In this document: positions 3,149 to 15,912 of the stretch, in pieces | Layout: each line of letters opens with the position of its first letter | How positions within the stretch are numbered: position 1 is the stretch's first letter | The notes under the pieces: model-generated | What the model was told of the DNA's origin: nothing | Seen by the model: only the letters and a program-made list of their open reading frames with translations | The model's database searches: none | Program-made: the position numbers and the translations under genes | UHGV virus genome: UHGV-0140152 | Source: a virus | Length of the DNA: 19,401 nucleotides | Reading direction: 5' to 3' (one strand)

Positions 3149-3544
3149 ATGACCGTTAAACGCGAAAAACTGACAGTTGATGTTTACTATGCCTCTGAAA
3201 CCGCCGAAGGTAAGAATGTGGCAAAAATTACCGTTGTTACGTACAACACCGAAACTGGTGCCGAAGTACAGGCCAGTACGATCGTGCGTAAAGGTGATGC
3301 CTCCGGCGGCGAGTACGCGACTCAATACCAGTCCATTCTCGATGCAACTGACCCGCTGCTGCTGAAAATCGAGAACTACTTCCGCCAGGTTGATGAAGAG
3401 GTGTTTGAAACCATGATGAATATGGTTAATTCCGTATTCACCTCCAGCCTGAACACCCGCACTACCTGGATTGGTCAGTACGGTCTGCGTATTACCTCCG
3501 GCATTCCTGCTGACACCTTAATCCCTGAAAGCGTATTCGCTTAA
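3149..3544 (+). CDS. hypothetical protein (131 aa)
   Basis: Track ORF; GGAG RBS 7 nt upstream of ATG; own terminator downstream. Confidence 0.7.
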   Translation: MTVKREKLTVDVYYASETAEGKNVAKITVVTYNTETGAEVQASTIVRKGDASGGEYATQYQSILDATDPLLLKIENYFRQVDEEVFETMMNMVNSVFTSSLNTRTTWIGQYGLRITSGIPADTLIPESVFA

Positions 3545-4656: not shown

Positions 4657-4908
4657 ATGAGCTATCAAATTCTGACGACGACAGCAGCCAGCATTACTGA
4701 GCTGAAAAGAAACCCTATGGGCACTGTAGCTGAAGGTGAGGGGGAGGCCGTCGCAATCCTGAACCGGAATGAACCCGCGTTTTACTGTGTCCCACCAGAA
4801 CTTTATGCCTACTATCGGGAACTCGCCGAGGACGCTGAACTTAACGCGATTGCAGATGAAAGAATGAAAGAACCGGACATTGTGAAGGTTAACCTGAATG
4901 ACCTATGA
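4657..4908 (+). CDS. stbD: type II antitoxin, Phd/YefM (StbD-like) family
   Basis: 83-aa protein MSYQILTTTAASITELKRNP... resembling StbD/Phd antitoxins; GAGGAGG RBS; overlaps the downstream RelE-like toxin gene. Confidence 0.8.
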   Translation: MSYQILTTTAASITELKRNPMGTVAEGEGEAVAILNRNEPAFYCVPPELYAYYRELAEDAELNAIADERMKEPDIVKVNLNDL

Positions 4909-5179
4909 GCTGGCATTTGAACGCAGGGCACTGAAAGAATGGCAGAAGCTCGGCCACACTGTTCGTGAACAATTCAAAAAGAAGCTGTCAGAGCGCCTGA
5001 AAAATCCACATGTCCCCGCAGCCAGGCTATATGGTCATACTGACCGTTACAAAATTAAGCTTCGCGCATCCGGTTACAGGCTCGTTTATCAGGTAATTGA
5101 TGAGAAGGTTGTTTTGCTTGTCATTGCTGTAGGAAAAAGGGAAAGCAGCGAAGTCTATCACACGGCTGATACTCGTTAG
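4898..5179 (+). CDS. stbE: type II toxin, RelE/StbE family mRNA interferase
   Basis: 93-aa protein with ...RALKEWQKLG..., ...YKIKLRASGYRLVYQVIDEKVV..., ...VGKRESSEVY..., closely matching E. coli RelE as I recall it. Classic coupled antitoxin-toxin arrangement. Confidence 0.85.
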   Translation: MTYELAFERRALKEWQKLGHTVREQFKKKLSERLKNPHVPAARLYGHTDRYKIKLRASGYRLVYQVIDEKVVLLVIAVGKRESSEVYHTADTR

Positions 5180-5440: not shown

Positions 5441-6160
5441 ATGAGTGCGCGTCTTAAGAAGCTTATCAAAAAGCGTAAATCTCTTAAAGAACATGCAGAA
5501 TTGATAAATTTAATTGAAAAACGTTTTCCAGTCATTTCGGATATTGAGGACTTCTATTGGGTGGAGAAATGTAAAGTTTGGGATGGCATTGATGATGTAA
5601 AAGATGTGGATGATTTTGTCAGCAAGTACAACCCAGACATTAACTACAAACTAGCTGATGATTTTGCTGGCTCGTCTAAAGATGATCCGCTTCCTGATTG
5701 GTTTAACATTGATGATTATCCTAGTTGCATGTGTACCACCTACACCAACAAAGATTTTAGTAAAGCGTGGTTTGCTATTGCTTATGGCTGTTATTTCAAT
5801 AAGTCCGACGGAAGCAAAAGACCATATTTTCTCGCTGAAATAGACTTAACCAGCGGAGAGATTACAGTACACGAAAACCACAGGAATCTAATGAAGCTTG
5901 TTGATAGCGTTCGCGTACTGGATACAGACGCCCAGCAATTAACGAACAATGCATGGTTCGGACTTGATGGAGTAAAAGGGGGTATCGAACTGATAATGGG
6001 TCATCTTTTAAATGAATACTCGGACTGGTATCATCCGCCACACAATCCGCTTGAGTCATTTGACGATCCGCTTGAGCCATTTGACGATCCGCTGAAGGAC
6101 TACATCGATGAACCAATATATATGATGGAATCTTTTCAATTAGATATGATTCCAGCATGA
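5441..6160 (+). CDS. highly acidic hypothetical protein (239 aa); distant paralog of 8856..9503
   Basis: Track ORF; AAGGAG RBS. Shares ...DFSKAWF...FLAEIDLTSGEITV... and NPLESFDD with the minus-strand protein at 8856..9503. Confidence 0.75.
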   Translation: MSARLKKLIKKRKSLKEHAELINLIEKRFPVISDIEDFYWVEKCKVWDGIDDVKDVDDFVSKYNPDINYKLADDFAGSSKDDPLPDWFNIDDYPSCMCTTYTNKDFSKAWFAIAYGCYFNKSDGSKRPYFLAEIDLTSGEITVHENHRNLMKLVDSVRVLDTDAQQLTNNAWFGLDGVKGGIELIMGHLLNEYSDWYHPPHNPLESFDDPLEPFDDPLKDYIDEPIYMMESFQLDMIPA

Positions 6161-6165
6161 CAAAC

Positions 6166-6197
6166 GCCACCAGTTAACGCTGGTGGCTTCAAGTTTT
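6166..6197 (+). terminator. intrinsic terminator
   Basis: GCCACCAG ttaacg CTGGTGGC followed by TTCAAGTTTT. Confidence 0.65.
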
Positions 6198-6199
6198 GC

Positions 6200-6342
6200 T
6201 CTCATCACCTCAGGTCAAATTTCCTCGTTTGCAACCTCAGGTCAATTTAAGAATGATATCACCTGTATCCCTGAACTTACTTCTTTTCTGCCTGTTTCAT
6301 TCAGCGATGATTATTACATCGAAAACAAACGAGGAATTAAAA
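6200..6342 (+). promoter_or_regulatory. cassette leader 2 (homologous to 5205-5440)
   Basis: Two acctcaggtcaa repeats, conserved block cctgaacttacttcttttctgcctgtttcattcagcgat and GAGGA RBS. Confidence 0.55.
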
Positions 6343-7269
6343 ATGAAACCAGTATTTTTGGGGCGAATTGATATTAGTGAATTGTTTTCAGTTAGAGATG
6401 GGTTCCAATATGACTGTGATTGCCTTGAACTTAATGGTCTTGAACGTGAATACAGATTGGCTATTGTGAATGATGGTAAGAAGACATTTTCTGTCGAATG
6501 TTTTGAAAATACTTACTTTAAGCAGGTGTTGAGAATAAGACAGCATGTGGAGATGTCAATTCGGGAAAACATCAAAAATAAATGTGAGTTTCTTGTGGTT
6601 AAAAATGAAGCAGATGAAATAAACTTTGTTACGTTCACTGATAGTGGTCGATTGGCTATGCTGGAGCTATTTCAGCTGATCGTTTCTAATAACAGTATAA
6701 CAGAAGCCTTGAACAGTCTTTCAACTATAGTATCAAGAGAAAGAGAAAACACTGGCGCTTTAATTGTAGAGGAGCTAGATGGAATACTCGAGAAGATCAA
6801 GAATAAAGAGCTGATTATAGAATATGGCAAGGAAAGTAGGAAAAATAATTTACATTCAGCTTTTCACTCCCCATATGTTGAGCGTTTGAATGGTTTGGCT
6901 GCTTTTGTTAATTTGGACTTTAATAGATTTTTTAGTTCTTTTTTTACAGAGTGTGGGCTTGTTATTGTTGAGGTAAATAATGAGAACGATGTCCCCAAAA
7001 TTATAGTACATTCGATGCCTGATATATCTCTCAATGAAATTGGGGACAAACTGGAGAATTTATACGATGTAAAAAGCATGGAAGAACTCATAGAGTATCT
7101 GGCCATAAATGCGGTAGCCATGGCTGATAATGATGTGTTTGGGGTTGGTGCACTGCATGAAGGTTTTCTTGACGCCCTTGAGCTTTACGGGACTGCTCGC
7201 TGGTTTCTGTCAGGATTAGTGGATGATGCACCTTTACTCATCAATACAGATTATTTTTATTCCAGTTGA
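6343..7269 (+). CDS. hypothetical protein (308 aa)
   Basis: In-frame ATG within track ORF 6196..7269, placed after the conserved leader and GAGGA RBS. No family recognised. Confidence 0.7.
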   Translation: MKPVFLGRIDISELFSVRDGFQYDCDCLELNGLEREYRLAIVNDGKKTFSVECFENTYFKQVLRIRQHVEMSIRENIKNKCEFLVVKNEADEINFVTFTDSGRLAMLELFQLIVSNNSITEALNSLSTIVSRERENTGALIVEELDGILEKIKNKELIIEYGKESRKNNLHSAFHSPYVERLNGLAAFVNLDFNRFFSSFFTECGLVIVEVNNENDVPKIIVHSMPDISLNEIGDKLENLYDVKSMEELIEYLAINAVAMADNDVFGVGALHEGFLDALELYGTARWFLSGLVDDAPLLINTDYFYSS

Positions 7270-8855: not shown

Positions 8856-9503
8856 TTATTCAAAATATGGAAATGCAGAATTTTCTTCATGATCTAATAC
8901 GAAAGTTTTTTCATTAATATAATTTGGCGCATTATCGCCAAATGATTCTAGTGGTTCGAGATGATTGAAATCATCTTTTTTAATAAAGTAGGATATATAA
9001 TAGATACCATCGTGTAAATCAGCCAAACCACACCAAATATAATAGCCAATAGGATAACATGCAGGACCACGATTCACATAAACTGTAATTTTTCCGCTTA
9101 ATAAATCCATCTCAGCAAAAAAAGCTAATCCGCTTTTTTCCTCTTCTCCTTCTTTTTCTCTGATTTTTCCGTTTAGAACGTCAGCACTTTGAATAAACCA
9201 CGCTCTAGTAAAATCCGCGTTAACATATGTAGCAAATTCGCCAAAGTCGCAATTTTTGCGCAAGTTGGGTAAATCCTCGATTAAATCGAGATTGATATTT
9301 AATTGCGCTGTATTTTCAGCAATAATTAGCTCTGCTTTCGTTAATTCCGTGTTATTAAATTCTGGCTTTTTTTCTGGTAATTTGTGCACTACTTCTTTGA
9401 TTTTGTCAGCGAATTTAATTTTTGATTTAATCAATGGAAGACGAGATTCAGCCATCTCTACGAAAGCAGAGATAAAAGATTCGCAAACAGTAAAAGTTTT
9501 CAT
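8856..9503 (-). CDS. hypothetical protein (215 aa); distant paralog of 5441..6160
   Basis: Track ORF; GAGGAA RBS. Shares ...DFTRAWF...FFAEMDLLSGKITV... and EPLESFGD with 5441..6160. Confidence 0.75.
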   Translation of the reverse strand: MKTFTVCESFISAFVEMAESRLPLIKSKIKFADKIKEVVHKLPEKKPEFNNTELTKAELIIAENTAQLNINLDLIEDLPNLRKNCDFGEFATYVNADFTRAWFIQSADVLNGKIREKEGEEEKSGLAFFAEMDLLSGKITVYVNRGPACYPIGYYIWCGLADLHDGIYYISYFIKKDDFNHLEPLESFGDNAPNYINEKTFVLDHEENSAFPYFE

Positions 9504-9607: not shown

Positions 9608-10258
9608 TTACGCTTTAAAAGCATCAGCTAGATAATTGTAGAAATCTTTTTTAATGAAGCGATATTGTTGAGTACCAGCTTTGGCGCTTCCCATTCCTTT
9701 GACTTTCTCAACAAGTCCGAGACGTTCGCAAAGATTGATTAGCTGGTTAGCTTGAGTATAGCCAGCGTCTAAGCGTAAATCATTTGCTCGCTTAACTTCA
9801 TTCATTAAATCAAAAACAGCGCCATTAGTAAAAACTTCTACTTCGTCTTTGATCATGTGAACAAGTGCAAACACGCGTGATCCGCTCATATCGTCTTTGG
9901 AGTACTCGCATTTACCAGCTTTGATAGATTTAACCAGATAAACTAATTTTTCCAGTGAGTAACTGTTAGTCATCGCTTCGCGGAAAAACACTTCTGGTGC
10001 TTGTTTGCTTGCTTTAATCGCAAAGTAAAACACAGCAGACAATTTTTCGTCGTTAACAGCAGACAAAATGTTATTAGAGAAATATTTTAACTTTGTAGAA
10101 GCAGCGCGAAGATTATCTTTATCGTTTTTGGTCAGCGCGCCAGTGCTATTAAGAAGTTCATTCTTTTGCCCCAAGTCGTTAGCTTTTGCACCCAGCTCAG
10201 CAGCAACAATATTAGCAGCTTCAACGATGTTTTTTTTAGATAATATAATGTTGGTCAT
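9608..10258 (-). CDS. hypothetical protein (216 aa)
   Basis: Track ORF; AGGA RBS about 9 nt upstream on the minus strand. No family recognised. Confidence 0.7.
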   Translation of the reverse strand: MTNIILSKKNIVEAANIVAAELGAKANDLGQKNELLNSTGALTKNDKDNLRAASTKLKYFSNNILSAVNDEKLSAVFYFAIKASKQAPEVFFREAMTNSYSLEKLVYLVKSIKAGKCEYSKDDMSGSRVFALVHMIKDEVEVFTNGAVFDLMNEVKRANDLRLDAGYTQANQLINLCERLGLVEKVKGMGSAKAGTQQYRFIKKDFYNYLADAFKA

Positions 10259-10549: not shown

Positions 10550-11113
10550 TTAAAATGGAAGGATTCGGTCAACCCAATCGAAGAGAACAATCATTCTTGC
10601 ATGTTCCCTGATTTTCATCGTCACCTGACAAGCATCAACGCCTAACGACACTCCCTCTATTTCACGGCCATCCGCCATGTAGACCCTTATAGATCTGCCG
10701 TTTTGATGAGCTTTGCGACATATCTTAAAAAAGTCACGACGTGATGGCTGGTTGTTCACGTAGTCAGGATGTACGGTAAGCCTGTCCGCAAAGTCCCCAT
10801 CTACTTCTGGAGGTATAATCGTTTCTATAGAGCTAACTTTCCCAAGAGGAAGACGAACTCGACGCTCTTTGCTTCTTGGAACGGGTGATAGATCAAGTTT
10901 GTTGCGTGATGGTAGTGTTCCCTGTACATACATGTTGAATACCTGTCCATCTTCCATCGTGACTTTTACAGGAACAGAGTGTGCCCTCCAGAACATCAAG
11001 GTATGTTCCACATTAGAATAGTCTCGCGGCCATACTTCAGCCGGTATGCCGTATGTAATATCTTTCGTCGTCATATCATTATAAAGTGGTTGGCAATATG
11101 TCCATTGTACCAT
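10550..11113 (-). CDS. hypothetical protein (187 aa; possibly 174 aa from an internal ATG at about 11074)
   Basis: Track ORF. The 11113 start overlaps the lipoprotein gene by 35 nt; the alternative ATG lies a few nt after the lipoprotein stop. No clear RBS for either. Confidence 0.55.
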   Translation of the reverse strand: MVQWTYCQPLYNDMTTKDITYGIPAEVWPRDYSNVEHTLMFWRAHSVPVKVTMEDGQVFNMYVQGTLPSRNKLDLSPVPRSKERRVRLPLGKVSSIETIIPPEVDGDFADRLTVHPDYVNNQPSRRDFFKICRKAHQNGRSIRVYMADGREIEGVSLGVDACQVTMKIREHARMIVLFDWVDRILPF

Positions 11114-11498
11114 CCCAGGTAGTGAAAACCCGATATGTTTTCGAGTCGCCCTGCTTTAGCTTTATTTCTCGTTCCATCCTGGAGGGGTTAAATGCGCAAA
11201 GACCTGAACTTTCAATTGATGTCCCAACGATCCACTCTCCTTCGTTAAGGTAGAAAGTTGCTTTTTCACCAGGTTCTAGCTTTGCAACCGTTTCTCCATT
11301 GATGAAAATGGAAGCGTTACATGCAGAACCAACCAGCCCTTTGTCTCGAACTATTGTTAAACTAGACTCATGTGGTGTTTGATATTTAAATATTCTGCTT
11401 TGAGGTGCATCCTTTGCCTTTGAAACAGATATAGACGAAGACGAACATCCAATTAGTGATGTGGTTAGTGTTAGAATAATTAGGTTTGTTACTTTCAT
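11079..11498 (-). CDS. putative lipoprotein (139 aa)
   Basis: N-terminus MKVTNLIILTLTTSLIGCSSS has a hydrophobic core and an L-I-G-C lipobox, indicating a signal peptidase II substrate. Confidence 0.7.
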   Translation of the reverse strand: MKVTNLIILTLTTSLIGCSSSSISVSKAKDAPQSRIFKYQTPHESSLTIVRDKGLVGSACNASIFINGETVAKLEPGEKATFYLNEGEWIVGTSIESSGLCAFNPSRMEREIKLKQGDSKTYRVFTTWDGTMDILPTTL

Positions 11499-11514
11499 AT
11501 TTGTCTGACTATGA

Positions 11515-12066
11515 TTAATAGTTAACTTGGGTTCTGTTGTAAATGTCTATTAAGAAATCGTCCTGCTTTATGTTTTTACAGGTTTTGTCGAAGGTTAATT
11601 CACCTGATAATATGCAGGCGTTGTATTTTTCGATAAAAATATTTAATGCCTGCCAATTTTTGAAAAGAAAAGAGAAACCATATGACGACTCGCTGCCGTT
11701 TATCAACCCTCGTGCGCTGGGATATTTGTATAAATTTGAATGTAGCTCTAATTTACCAGGGGCAACGTCGCCACAGGAATTCATAATGACGAACATTTTG
11801 GATATATCAAAAGGATAAAAAACTATGCCGCAATTTGTCCTGTTGCCTTTAATATCCTTCACGTAAATATAGTGCTCGTAACAATCTTTACGCGAGGCAT
11901 TTAACCTGTATTGTATTAGTTTGTGCTCTCCTTTTTGAGAGGGTATTAGGTATCGTGTACGCTTGTCTAAGCAGGATTTCGTCTTTGTACGGTATTGCGA
12001 CATACTGCTCTTTATTTCCGCTGCACTTAGAAAGTTCTCATTAAAAGGCAAATGTCCCATTTGCAC
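11515..12066 (-). CDS. hypothetical protein (183 aa) homologous to the N-terminal domain of the HNH protein at 12312..13292
   Basis: GGAGG RBS 5 nt upstream. ...YGFSFLFKNWQALNIFIEKYNACILSGEL aligns with ...LGYSFAFKNRLSIEMFLITLIDYIDSGKI of the HNH protein. No nuclease motif. Confidence 0.7.
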   Translation of the reverse strand: MQMGHLPFNENFLSAAEIKSSMSQYRTKTKSCLDKRTRYLIPSQKGEHKLIQYRLNASRKDCYEHYIYVKDIKGNRTNCGIVFYPFDISKMFVIMNSCGDVAPGKLELHSNLYKYPSARGLINGSESSYGFSFLFKNWQALNIFIEKYNACILSGELTFDKTCKNIKQDDFLIDIYNRTQVNY

Positions 12067-12152
12067 CTCCGGTTCTTAAGCATAGATAAGCCTACAAAAT
12101 TAATTCAGTCGATCAAGATCTTTTTTCAGCCGGAAGTTTATGTATCAAGAAG

Positions 12153-12168
12153 TGTGATCAAGTTCACA
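12153..12168. promoter_or_regulatory. perfect CRP-consensus-like palindrome TGTGA-N6-TCACA, about 95 bp upstream of 11515..12066
   Basis: tgtgatcaagttcaca inside a roughly 110-bp segment homologous to 13293-13415. Confidence 0.45.
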
Positions 12169-12311
12169 TACTGCTTTGCCAGAAGAATACCATATGCAAA
12201 ACATTCTATTGCTGTTAAAATTTAATCGTTCAGACATAAGGAAGCCCTATACCCTCGACAAATCTTTCTGGTATTGTCGAGGGCATGTTTCACATTTATA
12301 GGTAGATAGCG

Positions 12312-13292
12312 TTAATTGGTGTTTTTGTTCTTCTCTTTTTTGCTAATTTCATCACATGTAAGGTTCATTATGTCTATGTTTTCTTGCTTTTGAAGGTTGC
12401 CGACAATTTTTTTGCGCAATTCATAAAATCGCTCGCGTGGTATAGCTTCCTTGTTGCCGTTGATGTGAAGTATTGCGTGACAGCTAGGGCAGACGGCAAT
12501 CAGATCTGTTTTTGGGTTCACGCTTCGTGCATCTTCGCCTTGTGAAAGTGGGACGATGTGGTGAGCGTGTAGCAGCGTTTTCGTTTCTTTGCCGTCAATT
12601 TCCTTGCCGTATATTTCCGACATCGTTCTGCAACATAATTGACACCTGTAGTCTGCGTTTGCCAGAACGTCATTCCTTAACCCGGATACGCGGCTACGAT
12701 GTTGCGACTGGATTAATCTTGTTTCGCCCTCTATATATTCCTCAACTTCTTCTTTCTGGAGGTCGTAGCTGATTTCTTCTTGAGTCGGATGGACTTTTTT
12801 GTATAGAAGATCAAGATATTTAATGTCCTCTGTTATATATTTGGAATCCTCTAGCGAGGATATTTTTCCTGAGTCTATGTAGTCAATTAATGTAATAAGG
12901 AACATCTCTATCGATAGCCTGTTTTTAAAGGCAAACGAATATCCAAGATGTCTTCTATCTCCTGAATGAATTGGCGTCCAATGAGATTTCTCAATTTTTT
13001 GTGGTGTTACGCAGATACCTTTGCCGATATTGTTTACATGTTCCAATAATTGATAAACAGAATTAATGCGGTAAGCATGTGTTACTAAAGAATTTATTTT
13101 TCTTGTGCCGACGGAGGATTTTGTCATAACAACATGATGAGATATTTGTTTTTTTAAAATCAAATCATACGATGTAGCTTTTTGGTTTTCGCCTTTGTCG
13201 GTTTTTTTTATTAAATTTAGTTTTTTATTAGAGGCTATTTTCTCTATTTCTTCTCTAACTTCTTTTATCGTCATGTAAGTTTCTTTTGTCAT
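12312..13292 (-). CDS. HNH endonuclease, McrA-like C-terminal domain with an unrecognised N-terminal domain (326 aa)
   Basis: C-terminus YRCQLCC...LLHAHHIVPLSQGEDARSVNPKTDLIAVCPSCHAILH is an HNH motif with two Cys pairs, arranged like McrA. AT-rich gene. Confidence 0.8.
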   Translation of the reverse strand: MTKETYMTIKEVREEIEKIASNKKLNLIKKTDKGENQKATSYDLILKKQISHHVVMTKSSVGTRKINSLVTHAYRINSVYQLLEHVNNIGKGICVTPQKIEKSHWTPIHSGDRRHLGYSFAFKNRLSIEMFLITLIDYIDSGKISSLEDSKYITEDIKYLDLLYKKVHPTQEEISYDLQKEEVEEYIEGETRLIQSQHRSRVSGLRNDVLANADYRCQLCCRTMSEIYGKEIDGKETKTLLHAHHIVPLSQGEDARSVNPKTDLIAVCPSCHAILHINGNKEAIPRERFYELRKKIVGNLQKQENIDIMNLTCDEISKKEKNKNTN

Positions 13293-13390
13293 TATAATTC
13301 GACCTACTGGAATATCTTGATTTAAGAGGCTACAAATATCGTTCAGCCAATCAAGAAATTTTTTCAGCCGGAGGTTTGTACTTCAAAAAA

Positions 13391-13406
13391 TGTGATGAAT
13401 GTCACA
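13391..13406. promoter_or_regulatory. perfect CRP-consensus-like palindrome TGTGA-N6-TCACA, about 105 bp upstream of the HNH gene
   Basis: tgtgatgaatgtcaca within the duplicated promoter segment; on the minus strand it is followed by TTTTTT. Confidence 0.45.
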
Positions 13407-13431
13407 TGCAGGTGCGCTCATACACCTGCAT
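13404..13431 (-). terminator. hairpin after the stop of 13440..14006; likely terminator of the helicase operon
   Basis: CATGCAGGTG cgctcata CACCTGCATG, a perfect 10-bp stem, 9 nt past the stop codon. Confidence 0.5.
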
Positions 13432-13439
13432 GTAGACTA

Positions 13440-14006
13440 TTAATCATTCAATAATCTATATTTGCTTTTGATTAAATCTTCACCTTTTCTGGTGAACACA
13501 AAACCAAATTGCGATTTTTTGTTCAGTCGAAGAACTCTGTTATCCAGTGCATCGGTTGACGGAATTAGTGTCTGATCATCTATCCAATTTAGTAGCGTAA
13601 GAAAGTTCAGCAACCTCAACGTTGTTGTGCGAAGCTCTTTCGATATATTTTCAATGCTGGCAATTCGTCTTTCTTTTTTCTTTGGCGTTTCGATTAACTT
13701 CGCTTGAGAGGTGGACAATGAATAGATATTTTCATTGTCCTCATCAAACAACAGATGTTGGGTAAGTTTGCTAAAAAAACCTCGTGCGGATTCGCTTGAT
13801 AACACTCCCTCTTTATTCATATCATTAGTTATTCTGTACAAGAGTGGACCGTACTTCATTTCAGGATAACGTTGATAAAAGTTAAGTAATTCAAAAGCAG
13901 CATTAGCACCAACAAGAAAATCAGAAGGATCGCTGACCTTCCAGAAAGAATGATTTTTCTTAGCGCCTGTGGTGTCAACAAATGATAATTCTTTTAAACA
14001 ACTCAT
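13440..14006 (-). CDS. hypothetical protein (189 aa, MSCLKELSFVDTTGAKK...)
   Basis: Track ORF 13440..14039; preferred start is the ATG at 14006, 6 nt after AAGGAG. No family recognised. Confidence 0.7.
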   Translation of the reverse strand: MSCLKELSFVDTTGAKKNHSFWKVSDPSDFLVGANAAFELLNFYQRYPEMKYGPLLYRITNDMNKEGVLSSESARGFFSKLTQHLLFDEDNENIYSLSTSQAKLIETPKKKERRIASIENISKELRTTTLRLLNFLTLLNWIDDQTLIPSTDALDNRVLRLNKKSQFGFVFTRKGEDLIKSKYRLLND

Positions 14007-14071
14007 GATGTACTCCTTTCTAACAAGTGAGCACATCATAGAATTGGTGGATAGGGGGTAAATATGGAACG

Positions 14072-14350
14072 TTACGGCAACCTGCTCAGTATTTCCTCCA
14101 GATCTTCTTTGGTCATATTAGAGTTCTCATAAATACGCATAATTTTCTCACGAGTCTTAGCAGAGACTCCAACGGCAGATGAAACTTTGTCAAATTCAGC
14201 CATTGTCATTGTCTCCAGAATGGCATTGATAACTTCAGCCTTAGACATTTTGATATTTTTTTCTTTTAGTTTCACTTGAAACTTTCCAAGTTTGTCATTG
14301 GCCTTATCCGACAATGACACCTGACAATAAGTTGTTTTCTTTTCGCTCAT
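14072..14350 (-). CDS. small putative ribbon-helix-helix DNA-binding protein (92 aa)
   Basis: N-terminal strand-helix-helix pattern (TTYCQVSLSDKANDKLGKF...MSKAEVINAILETM); start is 2 nt after the helicase stop, suggesting translational coupling. Confidence 0.55.
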   Translation of the reverse strand: MSEKKTTYCQVSLSDKANDKLGKFQVKLKEKNIKMSKAEVINAILETMTMAEFDKVSSAVGVSAKTREKIMRIYENSNMTKEDLEEILSRLP

Positions 14351-14352
14351 AA

Positions 14353-15912
14353 CTAATCTCGTTTCAGAACTCCAAAATCGAATGTGCCATCAATTGGCAA
14401 TACACCTTCTGCAAAGCCAGGTGTGGTGTCGATGATGTGTTTTCGCTCATAAGAGTGAGACAACAGGTATTTGTTGCTAATGTCAATGAAATCAGTGATA
14501 AAACACACGTTTGCCTGATTTTTTTTTGCTCGTAAGCCACGACCGACACGCTGTCTCATTTCAACTTCTGCTTTCCCACCACCAGCAAGAATGACCGCGC
14601 CCACGCTTGGCACATCAACACCGACATCCAGAATAGTCGAGCCTATTAAAACATCTATTTCGCCAGACGCTAAACTGTTCAGCTTTGCTTGCCTTGTCGT
14701 CTGGTTCGATTCCCCATAGATGAAGTCAACTCTAAGGCCGGACTCTTTCATCATCTCCATCAGGATTTGCCCGTGGCGTTTAAGACGAACCAGAGTCATG
14801 CAGTTGAGAGAATGTTGCTTATAGAGCAATGCTTCTCGTACTATGGCCTCGTTTCGTCCCAAATTATACACGATCCCCAACTGATAAGCTTTTTGGTAGG
14901 CAGTGCTCATACCTACCCTAAAATTGAGGTGTTTGTTGGCAAGTTCTGCCTTGATTCTGACCTCGTCTGGTTTGTAGGCAACTTTATGATAAAGGAAATA
15001 TGGCTTTGCCAGAATACCTCTATCAATCAGGTATTTTTCTGTAACTTTAATTTCAATTCGCCCGGCCACAGCCATCAGACGCATGTTGGCTTCTGTAGAA
15101 GCCTTCATGAACGGCGTTGCCGTAAGCGCCAGGCGATAGTCTGCGTTCGTACATAATCTGGCAATGTCATAGAAATTAGAGCCTGAAGACTCATGCGCCT
15201 CTTCCAGAATAAGAAGAGAGACACTTGAAAGGAAGCGCTTCACTAACTCCTGACGTTTGAGGTGGTAGCTCTTCTTATCTGGTGTTGCATCGCGTGGTGG
15301 TTCTTCGAGGAAACTTGCAATAGTTTGAACTGTAGCGACGTTGATATGTCGTGATACCTGAAACTCACCCGAGCCAATGATTCCAACCTTTTGGTCTTTT
15401 AACCACGGTTCGCCATTTTTGGCGCGGTAGTCGATGGATCTCTGGAAGTTTTCGGCCATCTGAAACATCAGAACAGATCGGGTTGTTAAAAATAATGTCA
15501 TTCGACCGATACGTGCAGCTGCTTTGCAGGCAACGTTAGATTTCCCACCACCAGTAGCGATCTGCGCAATCATCATTCCCTCGCGAACCAGTGTTTCCAC
15601 AGTCTGATCCTGATACGCATAATCAGGATTGTATGGGAATGGGTTAACCGCCGGATTTGGCTTTCCAAGCGCCGGGGCTTTGTCTTTGCGGATATGAACA
15701 CATTTGATGCCCGCCTTGTTCAAGTTCGCCGCTACAGGCTTGGCAAAGCCAGCAGGGAACGAGTTTTTACTCCAGTGGAACATCGTGCTTGTGCCCTTCC
15801 AGTCGCCAGTGTCGACTTCGTAGCTCAACATCTGTTGCACCAGTTGCTTTACCTTGTCATCTGCGCCAGAAATAAGCGCATTTACTGCGTTAGATACAAT
15901 CCGAACAGTCAT
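14353..15912 (-). CDS. SF2 DEAD/DEAH-box helicase (519 aa)
   Basis: Walker A ATGGGKS, motif II LILEEAH (DEAH variant), motif III LTATP, motif VI QRVGRGLR. About 110-aa N-terminal extension of unknown function. Confidence 0.85.
   Translation of the reverse strand: MTVRIVSNAVNALISGADDKVKQLVQQMLSYEVDTGDWKGTSTMFHWSKNSFPAGFAKPVAANLNKAGIKCVHIRKDKAPALGKPNPAVNPFPYNPDYAYQDQTVETLVREGMMIAQIATGGGKSNVACKAAARIGRMTLFLTTRSVLMFQMAENFQRSIDYRAKNGEPWLKDQKVGIIGSGEFQVSRHINVATVQTIASFLEEPPRDATPDKKSYHLKRQELVKRFLSSVSLLILEEAHESSGSNFYDIARLCTNADYRLALTATPFMKASTEANMRLMAVAGRIEIKVTEKYLIDRGILAKPYFLYHKVAYKPDEVRIKAELANKHLNFRVGMSTAYQKAYQLGIVYNLGRNEAIVREALLYKQHSLNCMTLVRLKRHGQILMEMMKESGLRVDFIYGESNQTTRQAKLNSLASGEIDVLIGSTILDVGVDVPSVGAVILAGGGKAEVEMRQRVGRGLRAKKNQANVCFITDFIDISNKYLLSHSYERKHIIDTTPGFAEGVLPIDGTFDFGVLKRD

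Follow-up and report, generated by a model that had tools for sequence, protein, structure and literature searches.

The DNA analyzed here (19,401 nucleotides (nt) of the virus genome UHGV-0140152, hereafter the window; ENA metagenome contig ERZ1749178 NODE_923) belongs to an SSU5-supergroup phage-plasmid of E. coli, and its region 11515–13440 is a variable slot that holds two stacked cassettes. One of them carries a gene for a 326-amino-acid (aa) protein that combines an orphan N-terminal domain with a C-terminal HNH domain, and the other carries a free paralogue of the orphan domain. We assign a probability of roughly 45% to the reading that the former is an accessory cassette whose targeting-domain/HNH nuclease would act on incoming foreign DNA and would be expressed from a promoter under the host CRP, the free paralogue being a separate cassette. 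The element was recognized by megablast, in which the window aligned with 92–94% identity over 59–70% of its length to the Escherichia phages Cyrano, PhiR41_1, and CMS-2020a; many (hundreds of) non-mobilizable Escherichia plasmids of ~110 kb matched it in the same identity range, and Salmonella phage SSU5 and Klebsiella elements gave more distant alignments. The slot is bordered on one side by a ParB/helicase cluster and a pair of small genes encoding 92 aa and 188/199 aa, and on the other side by a lipoprotein gene and a gene for an FljA-like "repressor of phase-1 flagellin". The G+C content (GC) of the slot region is 0.372 versus 0.465 for the helicase and 0.45–0.50 for the ParB/ABC genes, which agrees with the AT-richness emphasized in an initial annotation of this DNA, although the adjoining 199-aa and 92-aa genes are as AT-rich as the slot. 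No description of this gene or slot was found in the literature on SSU5 phage-plasmids.

The 326-aa protein passed the Pfam cut-off for HNH (PF01844; E = 1.3e-4, 22.5 bits against a cut-off of 21.4), and its best match in the PDB was the HNH part of EcoKMcrA (6ghc, E = 0.0044). Several PHROG families of HNH endonucleases also matched this protein (best 3.9e-9), and PADLOC gave partial matches in the HNH region (PDLC04132, 1.6e-5; mREase_IV, 3.3e-4 over 47 residues). The motif C217-x2-C220, H244-H245, N259/D263, C268-x2-C271-H272, H276 is complete, and its residues H244-H245, N259/D263, H272, and H276 line up with VHHVIPLS...CPNCHRELH of McrA. Both CxxC pairs (C217-Q-L-C220 and C268-P-S-C271) occur in all fusions of this kind, and the catalytic and zinc-ligand residues are unchanged across all six fusion clusters (69–100% identity), which indicates selection for nuclease activity. 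The nuclease module is predicted to be a catalytically intact McrA-type HNH. This bears out the McrA-like HNH domain proposed in the initial annotation, including its catalytic histidines (H244-H245). The same annotation had left about 230 N-terminal residues unrecognized; database matches were indeed lacking for the N-terminal domain, but this domain comprises only ~169 residues because residues 170–215 form a conserved linker that travels together with the HNH domain. The base composition also differs inside the gene, with a GC of 0.316 in the N-domain part versus 0.432 in the HNH part. Downstream of the gene lies a hairpin with a 13-bp stem, which is probably a terminator and which other alleles share with a convergent 267-aa gene. 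A terminase-associated packaging nuclease was considered for the HNH protein and rejected, since the gene is not located beside a terminase and is missing from most relatives.

The N-terminal domain, searched as a single sequence and as the profiles A3 and A9, had no counterpart in Pfam, NCBIfam, PADLOC, or the PDB (E ≤ 10 for the PDB), and Pfam was likewise negative for all 19 family members searched. Neither the PDB nor Pfam revealed sequence similarity to the N-domain of McrA or to SRA, SBD, PUA/EVE/YTH, and winged-helix readers. Matches to a TagE/M23 peptidase (E = 0.04) and to eL20 (E = 0.09) were dismissed as chance, and an inspection by eye for GIY-YIG, PD-(D/E)xK, and GxSxG motifs gave candidate residues in single subtypes, none of which is conserved across subtypes. 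The sole match of the domain was the unannotated family phrog_31250, which matches both window proteins (1.3e-80 for the free and 1.1e-4 for the fused one). The free protein and the fused N-domain were aligned by BLASTP with E = 1e-6 (22% identity over 167 aa), and their Smith-Waterman score was 96 compared with 30.7 ± 5.0 in 2000 shuffles (z = 13). The paralogy claimed earlier is hence confirmed, and so is the N-domain-only composition of the second gene, whose product is however 181 aa in length instead of 183. The latter value would be obtained from a GTG at 12066; the ATG at 12060 was adopted as the start because it is preceded by a GGAGGT Shine-Dalgarno sequence, and the gene calls agree with it.

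With a two-sequence profile, HMMER retrieved 5 family proteins when 1.84 billion representatives were searched exhaustively, a profile search over 5.8 billion clusters retrieved 15 family clusters, and a scan of IMG/VR with profile A3 yielded no confirmed member. All the members reside on SSU5-like contigs of ~105–111 kb from Escherichia, Salmonella, Klebsiella, and Cronobacter; the family is tiny (about 20 clusters) and confined to SSU5-like elements. Its multiple alignment has a common core composed of V-x-P...E and G-[FY]-S-F-x-F-K. Free proteins of 177–201 aa are the majority form (one cluster alone has 159 members), and HNH fusions make up five clusters (P0007–P0011) beside the window protein. 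Subtypes A and A' were found only fused (window protein, P0007, P0008, and P0009) and subtype B in both states (fused, P0010 and P0011; free, P0001–P0006, to which the window's 181-aa protein is added), while subtype C, the commonest (P0014–P0020), and subtype D (P0012) were found only free. The subtype-B free genes showed ratios of non-synonymous to synonymous substitution (dN/dS) of 0.17–0.28 against their orthologues, with a synonymous divergence far above that of the backbone. Such values denote purifying selection and suggest that these genes are functional rather than debris. The free P0006 has its closer kin in the fused P0011 (82%) and not in the remaining free forms, so that fusion or truncation happened more than once.

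The content of the slot differs among relatives. In CP027369, the slot contains a gene for an HNH protein of 377 aa, whose N-domain is different, and the convergent 267-aa lipoprotein-like gene, with no free domain gene. CP126951 and two IMG/VR contigs (L007 and L008) possess the free domain gene only, followed by a lipoprotein gene and an FljA-like gene. PhiR41_1 and plasmids of Klebsiella and Cronobacter also have a free member alone, which is more distant (191–201 aa) and is followed by a small secreted protein. SSU5 has no family member in the slot, and in pEC881_2 the slot encodes a secreted protein of 197 aa that is unrelated and is preceded by another promoter. In dozens of plasmids the 377-aa gene is reduced to an in-frame remnant of 32 codons, MRQFIKTCDLRNIVDDIACDE followed by ISKKEKNKNAN, which arose by deletion between two GCATGTGATGAAA (ACDE-coding) microhomologies and kept the promoter and terminator. 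An example of this remnant, which is seemingly common to Escherichia plasmids, is located at 3208–3330 of CP028430 (L003). A further decayed HNH copy, P0013, is a 43-aa frameshift fragment. The HNH gene and the free gene were found together only in the window contig and two further contigs, and in 0 complete E. coli genomes.

Comparison of the fusions indicated that their two parts have separate histories of exchange. The N-domain and the C-terminal part exhibited 36% and 97% identity, respectively, between the window protein and P0009, 20% and 91% between P0008 and P0010, and 64% and 69% between the window protein and P0008. When their DNA is compared, the window and CP027369 share 96% identity between the terminator and position 12785, a stretch that includes the HNH domain; they are unalignable at 12786–13326 and again share 89% identity from the promoter onward. 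This breakpoint at 12785/12786 places the swap of domain and nuclease exactly at the linker, where the domain subtypes and HNH subtypes of the fusions are, judging from these alignments, reassorted. Compared with CP126951, the window contains an extra 1157 bp (12170–13326) between the promoter copies, consisting of the HNH gene with its 5' untranslated region and of the terminator region. Because the extra segment is bracketed by promoter copies, the "duplication" of the promoter would reflect the joining of two diverged slot alleles, with the HNH cassette placed upstream of the free-domain cassette, and not a recent tandem duplication; the paired cassettes resemble two alleles of a single slot that were stacked by recombination at the common promoter.

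The two promoter copies (Table 1) constitute a direct repeat of 81 nt with 77% identity, so that the duplicated promoter with perfect palindromes stands as initially annotated, while its estimated extent of about 110 bp does not. The promoter motif was found at these two places only within the window, and the same holds for TGTGA-N6-TCACA, even when one mismatch is allowed; ~0.02 exact sites are expected from the composition. The complete 109.6-kb plasmid CP027369 has one perfect site only, upstream of its HNH gene, which argues that the palindrome is not a reiterated element-specific operator. We aligned nine promoter copies, namely the two of the window and those of L001 (CP027369), L002 (CP126951), L007, L008, PhiR41_1, Klebsiella pNH25.3, and Cronobacter pCsaCS931a. 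They represent three genera (Escherichia, Klebsiella, and Cronobacter) and exhibit zero indels from the palindrome to the −10 element, the spacing between the palindrome and the −35 element being equal in the two window copies and the same in all copies compared. Invariant in 9/9 copies are GTGA-N6-TCAC, TCCGGCT, the A-tract, the TTGAT of the −35 element, and GTAGNCT. The perfect TGTGA-N6-TCACA is present in 7/9 copies, the N6 spacer is free to vary, and the Klebsiella palindrome core agrees with 15/16 of the CRP consensus core; the consensus used for scoring of the 22-mers was AAATGTGATCTAGATCACATTT. The −10 element is weak (TAGGCT or TAGCCT) and is located 16 nt past the −35 element. The A-tract that follows TCCGGCT resembles the proximal subsite of a UP element. 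TCCGGCT itself, 7 nt in length, lies on the minus strand at 12128–12134 and 13366–13372, between the palindrome and the A-tract. The conserved block was also compared by eye with promoters of the sigma-54, sigma-32, sigma-E, and sigma-28 types, and no type agreed with it on the correct strand in all genera. This footprinting across three genera strengthens the CRP reading that the initial annotation had given to the palindromes in both homologous promoters, and we regard it as likely that they are functional CRP sites.

From these features the following mechanism can be proposed. The orphan domain would be an autonomous binding (target-recognition) module that, in the fusion, would direct or gate HNH cleavage of foreign DNA during the plasmid stage. 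The outcome would be a type IV-like restriction or the exclusion of rival phages and phage-plasmids. The promoter would be of the sigma-70 type, with a UP-like A-tract, a good −35 element, a weak −10 element, and a CRP site near −78.5, and as this site is for a host protein the expression should rise with cyclic AMP. If the promoter is truly CRP-dependent, the expression of the nuclease, the lipoprotein, and the flagellin repressor would be tied to the carbon status of the host. The free paralogue next door would form a separate cassette and would not be an obligate partner. Each cassette has a moron-like anatomy with its own promoter, terminator hairpin, and deviant GC, and a defence role of the HNH cassette is plausible.

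Several observations weigh against this proposal. An intact HNH allele is present in just 2 of 5426 complete E. coli genomes and has been lost repeatedly, and the other slot alleles sampled encode lipoproteins or secreted proteins, not known defence genes. PADLOC-DB v2 gave no full-length system match beyond the HNH motif and 0 matches for the free domain proteins, so that this check did not recognize the restriction or abortive-infection module suggested initially, apart from the partial matches in the HNH region. No set of acidic or basic residues is invariant across all domain subtypes. The AlphaFold2 models of the 326-aa and 181-aa proteins, computed from an alignment of the two window sequences only, reached mean confidence scores (pLDDT) of only 36.6 and 38.0, with which fold searches would be meaningless. 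As for the promoter, the helical phases productive for CRP are −41.5, −61.5, −71.5, and −82.5, and the site, with its predicted centre near −78.5, coincides with none of the canonical class I phases (−61.5, −71.5, and −82.5), as counted from the predicted −10 element (TAGGCT/TAGCCT) with a predicted start 7 nt downstream. The left half-site of palindrome 1 is also a part of the 3' arm of a conserved hairpin, and owing to this overlap the binding of CRP may be affected by termination or by formation of the RNA end, or may affect them. Finally, no factor could be assigned to the TCCGGCT that is invariant in the nine promoter copies of the three genera.

The last three points would be accommodated if TGTGA-N6-TCACA were not a CRP site and were instead a component of the structure at the 3' end of the upstream gene, or an operator of another, possibly element-encoded, regulator. 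The conserved hairpin, which follows the 188/199-aa gene just past its stop codon and lacks a U-run next to it, shows five compensatory pairs in Klebsiella and Cronobacter, and the left half-site pairs within this hairpin; T-runs follow the palindrome in most copies, and TCCGGCT points to an additional factor. The palindrome is nevertheless retained in the hairpin-less promoter copies (window copy 2, L007, and L008), and by itself it folds weakly. Its GTGA/TCAC arms are invariant, while the spacer and flanks vary, and the 22-mers (16–17/22) and the Klebsiella core noted above agree with the CRP consensus. The occurrence of only one such site in the whole 109.6-kb element also disagrees with a repeated element-specific operator. 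We consider a non-CRP identity of the palindrome unlikely and retain the assignment to CRP.

The genes located downstream of the free paralogue raise a different question about the function of the family. The lipoprotein gene starts 17 nt downstream of the 181-aa gene, and the order of a 181-aa-type gene followed by a lipoprotein gene was also found in L002 (CP126951), L007, and L008. The tight spacing of the domain gene, the lipoprotein or secreted-protein gene, and the FljA-like gene suggests a single operon, and in the window these three genes probably form one with the FljA-like gene as the last. This arrangement, in which the CRP-type promoter precedes the genes for the orphan-domain protein, a small lipoprotein or secreted protein, and the FljA-like repressor, spans 10550–12060 (−) in the window and was also observed at 3315–5806 of L012, 2507–4067 of L014, and 2666–4049 of L015; it recurs in E. 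coli, Klebsiella, and Cronobacter elements. The host flagellar genes are themselves CRP-activated, so that a flagellin repressor under a CRP signal makes sense. The family might be mainly unrelated to defence, with the ~190-aa domain protein serving a CRP-timed lysogenic-conversion operon in an accessory or regulatory capacity, and with the HNH fusion as a rare evolutionary side-product. The recurrence of the tightly spaced order in the three genera, the activation of flagellar genes by CRP, and the dominance of free forms in the family are all in favor of this idea, to which we give a minor chance. It does not readily explain why all catalytic and zinc ligands are kept in the six fusion clusters, or why domain and nuclease subtypes are reassorted in the manner typical of conflict systems.

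The HNH gene could also be a selfish, free-standing homing endonuclease that cuts HNH-less alleles near the slot and spreads by recombinational repair, using the N-domain as a sequence-specific DNA-binding module. Consistent with this, the gene is AT-rich with its own promoter and occurs sporadically at one fixed intergenic slot among close relatives, with degenerate or deleted copies of the kind that a homing cycle would leave, and the presumed specificity module is exchanged between alleles. In type IV enzymes, the binding domain is N-terminal and the McrA-type HNH is C-terminal, while I-HmuI-like homing HNH enzymes differ, and the 326-aa protein follows the type IV order. Moreover, the flank 13327–14399 exhibited 88.4–88.8% identity to HNH-positive and HNH-negative relatives alike, with no haplotype common to the HNH-positive alleles, and the CRP-type promoter, which a homing gene would not need, is kept in the nuclease-less members too. 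A homing endonuclease is quite unlikely on this evidence, and nuclease action against incoming DNA is preferred.

In the initial annotation, the free copy was taken for a decoy or regulatory paralog of the nuclease. In the wider form of this idea, the free N-domain protein would be a decoy, inhibitor, or immunity factor against HNH fusions, including those of rival elements, and would work by target competition or by poisoning of oligomers. The free subtype-B proteins do share 47–59% identity (71–82% for P0006) with the N-domains of the Klebsiella fusions P0010 and P0011, stop exactly at the domain boundary, are under purifying selection, and have the same promoter as the fusions. Yet most elements carry one gene type without the other, the free copy of the window (subtype B) is just 21–24% identical to the resident fused domain (subtype A), and subtype C, the commonest, exists only in the free form, which is the majority form of the family. 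The independent occurrence of the two genes and their different subtypes weaken the decoy idea, which we now hold to be very unlikely, and the initial interpretation as a whole is partly supported. Least probable of all is the scenario in which the orphan domain would be a specificity module of inter-element warfare private to SSU5-type phage-plasmids, where HNH-armed alleles would cut rival phage-plasmids or phages recognized by the domain, the far commoner nuclease-less ones would serve as "disarmed" immunity or competitor proteins that protect their carrier by occupying the target, and subtypes would turn over by cassette exchange at the CRP-timed promoter.

Table 1. Location of the slot genes, their domains, and the associated signals in the window.
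Feature	Position	Strand	Evidence and details
HNH protein gene, 326 aa	12312–13292	−	Open reading frame translation
Orphan N-domain, subtype A, residues 1–169	12786–13292	−	phrog_31250 match
Linker and McrA-type HNH / CxxC...CxxC zinc-finger nuclease domain (predicted), residues 170–326	12312–12785	−	Pfam HNH, 6ghc, PHROG
Terminator-like hairpin, 13-bp stem	12249–12286		Inverted repeat; folding −22 kcal/mol, z = −3.3; region homologous in L001, L003
Promoter copy 1 (predicted), before HNH gene	13327–13407	−	−10 TAGCCT (13332–13327); −35 TTGATT (13354–13349); TCCGGCTGAAAAAA at 13372–13359; palindrome 13391–13406
Perfect CRP-type palindrome TGTGATGAATGTCACA	13391–13406		22-mer 13388–13409, 16/22 of CRP consensus
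Promoter copy 2 (predicted), before 181-aa gene	12089–12169	−	−10 TAGGCT (12094–12089); −35 TTGATC (12116–12111); TCCGGCTGAAAAAA at 12134–12121; palindrome 12153–12168
Perfect CRP-type palindrome TGTGATCAAGTTCACA	12153–12168		22-mer 12150–12171, 17/22 of CRP consensus
Conserved hairpin past stop codon of 188/199-aa gene	13401–13437	−	Folding −24.9 kcal/mol, z = −4.9
Free N-domain paralogue, subtype B, 181 aa	11515–12060	−	BLASTP, shuffles, phrog_31250, gene calls
Lipoprotein, 139 aa, lipobox LIGC	11079–11498	−	phrog_890, 7.5e-51
FljA-like repressor of phase-1 flagellin	10550–11113	−	Pfam Flag1_repress, 1.3e-70; gene calls
188/199-aa protein	13440–14039	−	phrog_13473, uncharacterized family

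The 188/199-aa gene adjoining the slot is itself variably present, being missing in the IMG/VR contigs L007 and L008, in SSU5, and in pEC881_2. Its product was considered as a further paralogue of the orphan domain and rejected (hhalign probability 0.2%). It was also considered as a sigma factor, for which an NCBIfam match with E = 0.015 was judged insignificant, and the promoter is kept in L007 and L008 although these contigs lack the gene. An imperfect inverted repeat with arms of 19 nt (11511–11529 and 13429–13447; 84% complementary) brackets the two-cassette block almost exactly, and was judged to be chance or stop-codon context, with ATTAAT cores in both arms.

Other accessory stretches were observed elsewhere in the window. 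A toxin-antitoxin pair at 4657–5179 (+) consists of an 83-aa Phd/YefM-like antitoxin (a weak match, 1.7e-3) and an overlapping 93-aa ParE toxin (PF05016, 8.6e-13). Directly past this pair, adjacent open reading frames of 239 aa and 357 aa occupy 5441–7269 (+) with a GC of ~0.35–0.36; neither has a match in Pfam, PHROG, or PADLOC, and this stretch is a second orphan accessory island of the window. Within the window, GC is lowest (0.33) in the part that contains a 215-aa reading frame at 8856–9503 (−) with no PHROG, Pfam, or PADLOC match, the neighbour of which, a 216-aa reading frame at 9608–10258, belongs to the conserved but uncharacterized family phrog_1513.

Clinical Escherichia, Shigella, Salmonella, and Klebsiella commonly harbor SSU5-type phage-plasmids, whose accessory slots have been little explored. 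The slot described here holds an undescribed protein family without relatives outside these elements, which sometimes bears an HNH domain and appears to have its domain and nuclease swapped as modules. If the domain is a reader of DNA or of its modifications, it would represent a new reader fold for type IV-like enzymes and possibly a new tool.

Fusions of reader domains to HNH (wH-HNH and PUA-wH-HNH) are built combinatorially and act as type IV enzymes (PMC11037411). The 326-aa protein resembles EcoKMcrA and these reader-HNH enzymes in that one polypeptide comprises an N-terminal domain for putative recognition and a C-terminal McrA-type HNH with two CxxC pairs, in being carried on a mobile element, and in having the HNH of McrA as the closest solved structure. 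It differs from them in that its N-domain has no detectable sequence similarity to the readers in the PDB or Pfam, and in that the orphan domain is mostly nuclease-less. A preprint on Shedu (bioRxiv 10.1101/2023.08.10.552793) describes immune nucleases made of a single protein, in which the nuclease core is conserved and the N-terminal sensor domains are swapped. The combination of a conserved nuclease module with divergent, exchangeable N-terminal domains is similar to the present case, which differs from what is described there in its HNH fold, the lack of a sequence relation, and the restriction to one small domain family in a single phage-plasmid lineage. The cassettes also resemble prophage "morons" in having their own promoter, a terminator hairpin, and a deviant base composition, and in their presence or absence at a fixed slot. 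Unlike morons, the two cassettes share diverged copies of one CRP-site promoter, which appears to have served as a recombination joint between them.

Homing endonucleases such as T4 Seg/Mob and the I-HmuI-type HNH enzymes are similarly encoded by sporadic intergenic genes with decayed copies in relatives, but the McrA-like domain order and HNH subtype, the flanks, in which no co-conversion signal is seen, and the nuclease-less members in the same slot set the present gene apart. A toxin-antitoxin or nuclease-immunity pair is not matched either, as the HNH gene and the free gene do not co-occur obligately among relatives. The promoters are comparable to CRP class I/III promoters of Enterobacteria in their perfect TGTGA-N6-TCACA core, weak −10 element, A-tract upstream of the −35 element, and rigid spacing across genera, and differ from them in the predicted centre at −78.5, off the standard phases, and in the extra TCCGGCT between the CRP site and the A-tract. 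Among these systems, the 326-aa protein is best described as a putative reader- or targeting-domain-HNH nuclease that is built on an undescribed, lineage-restricted domain family.

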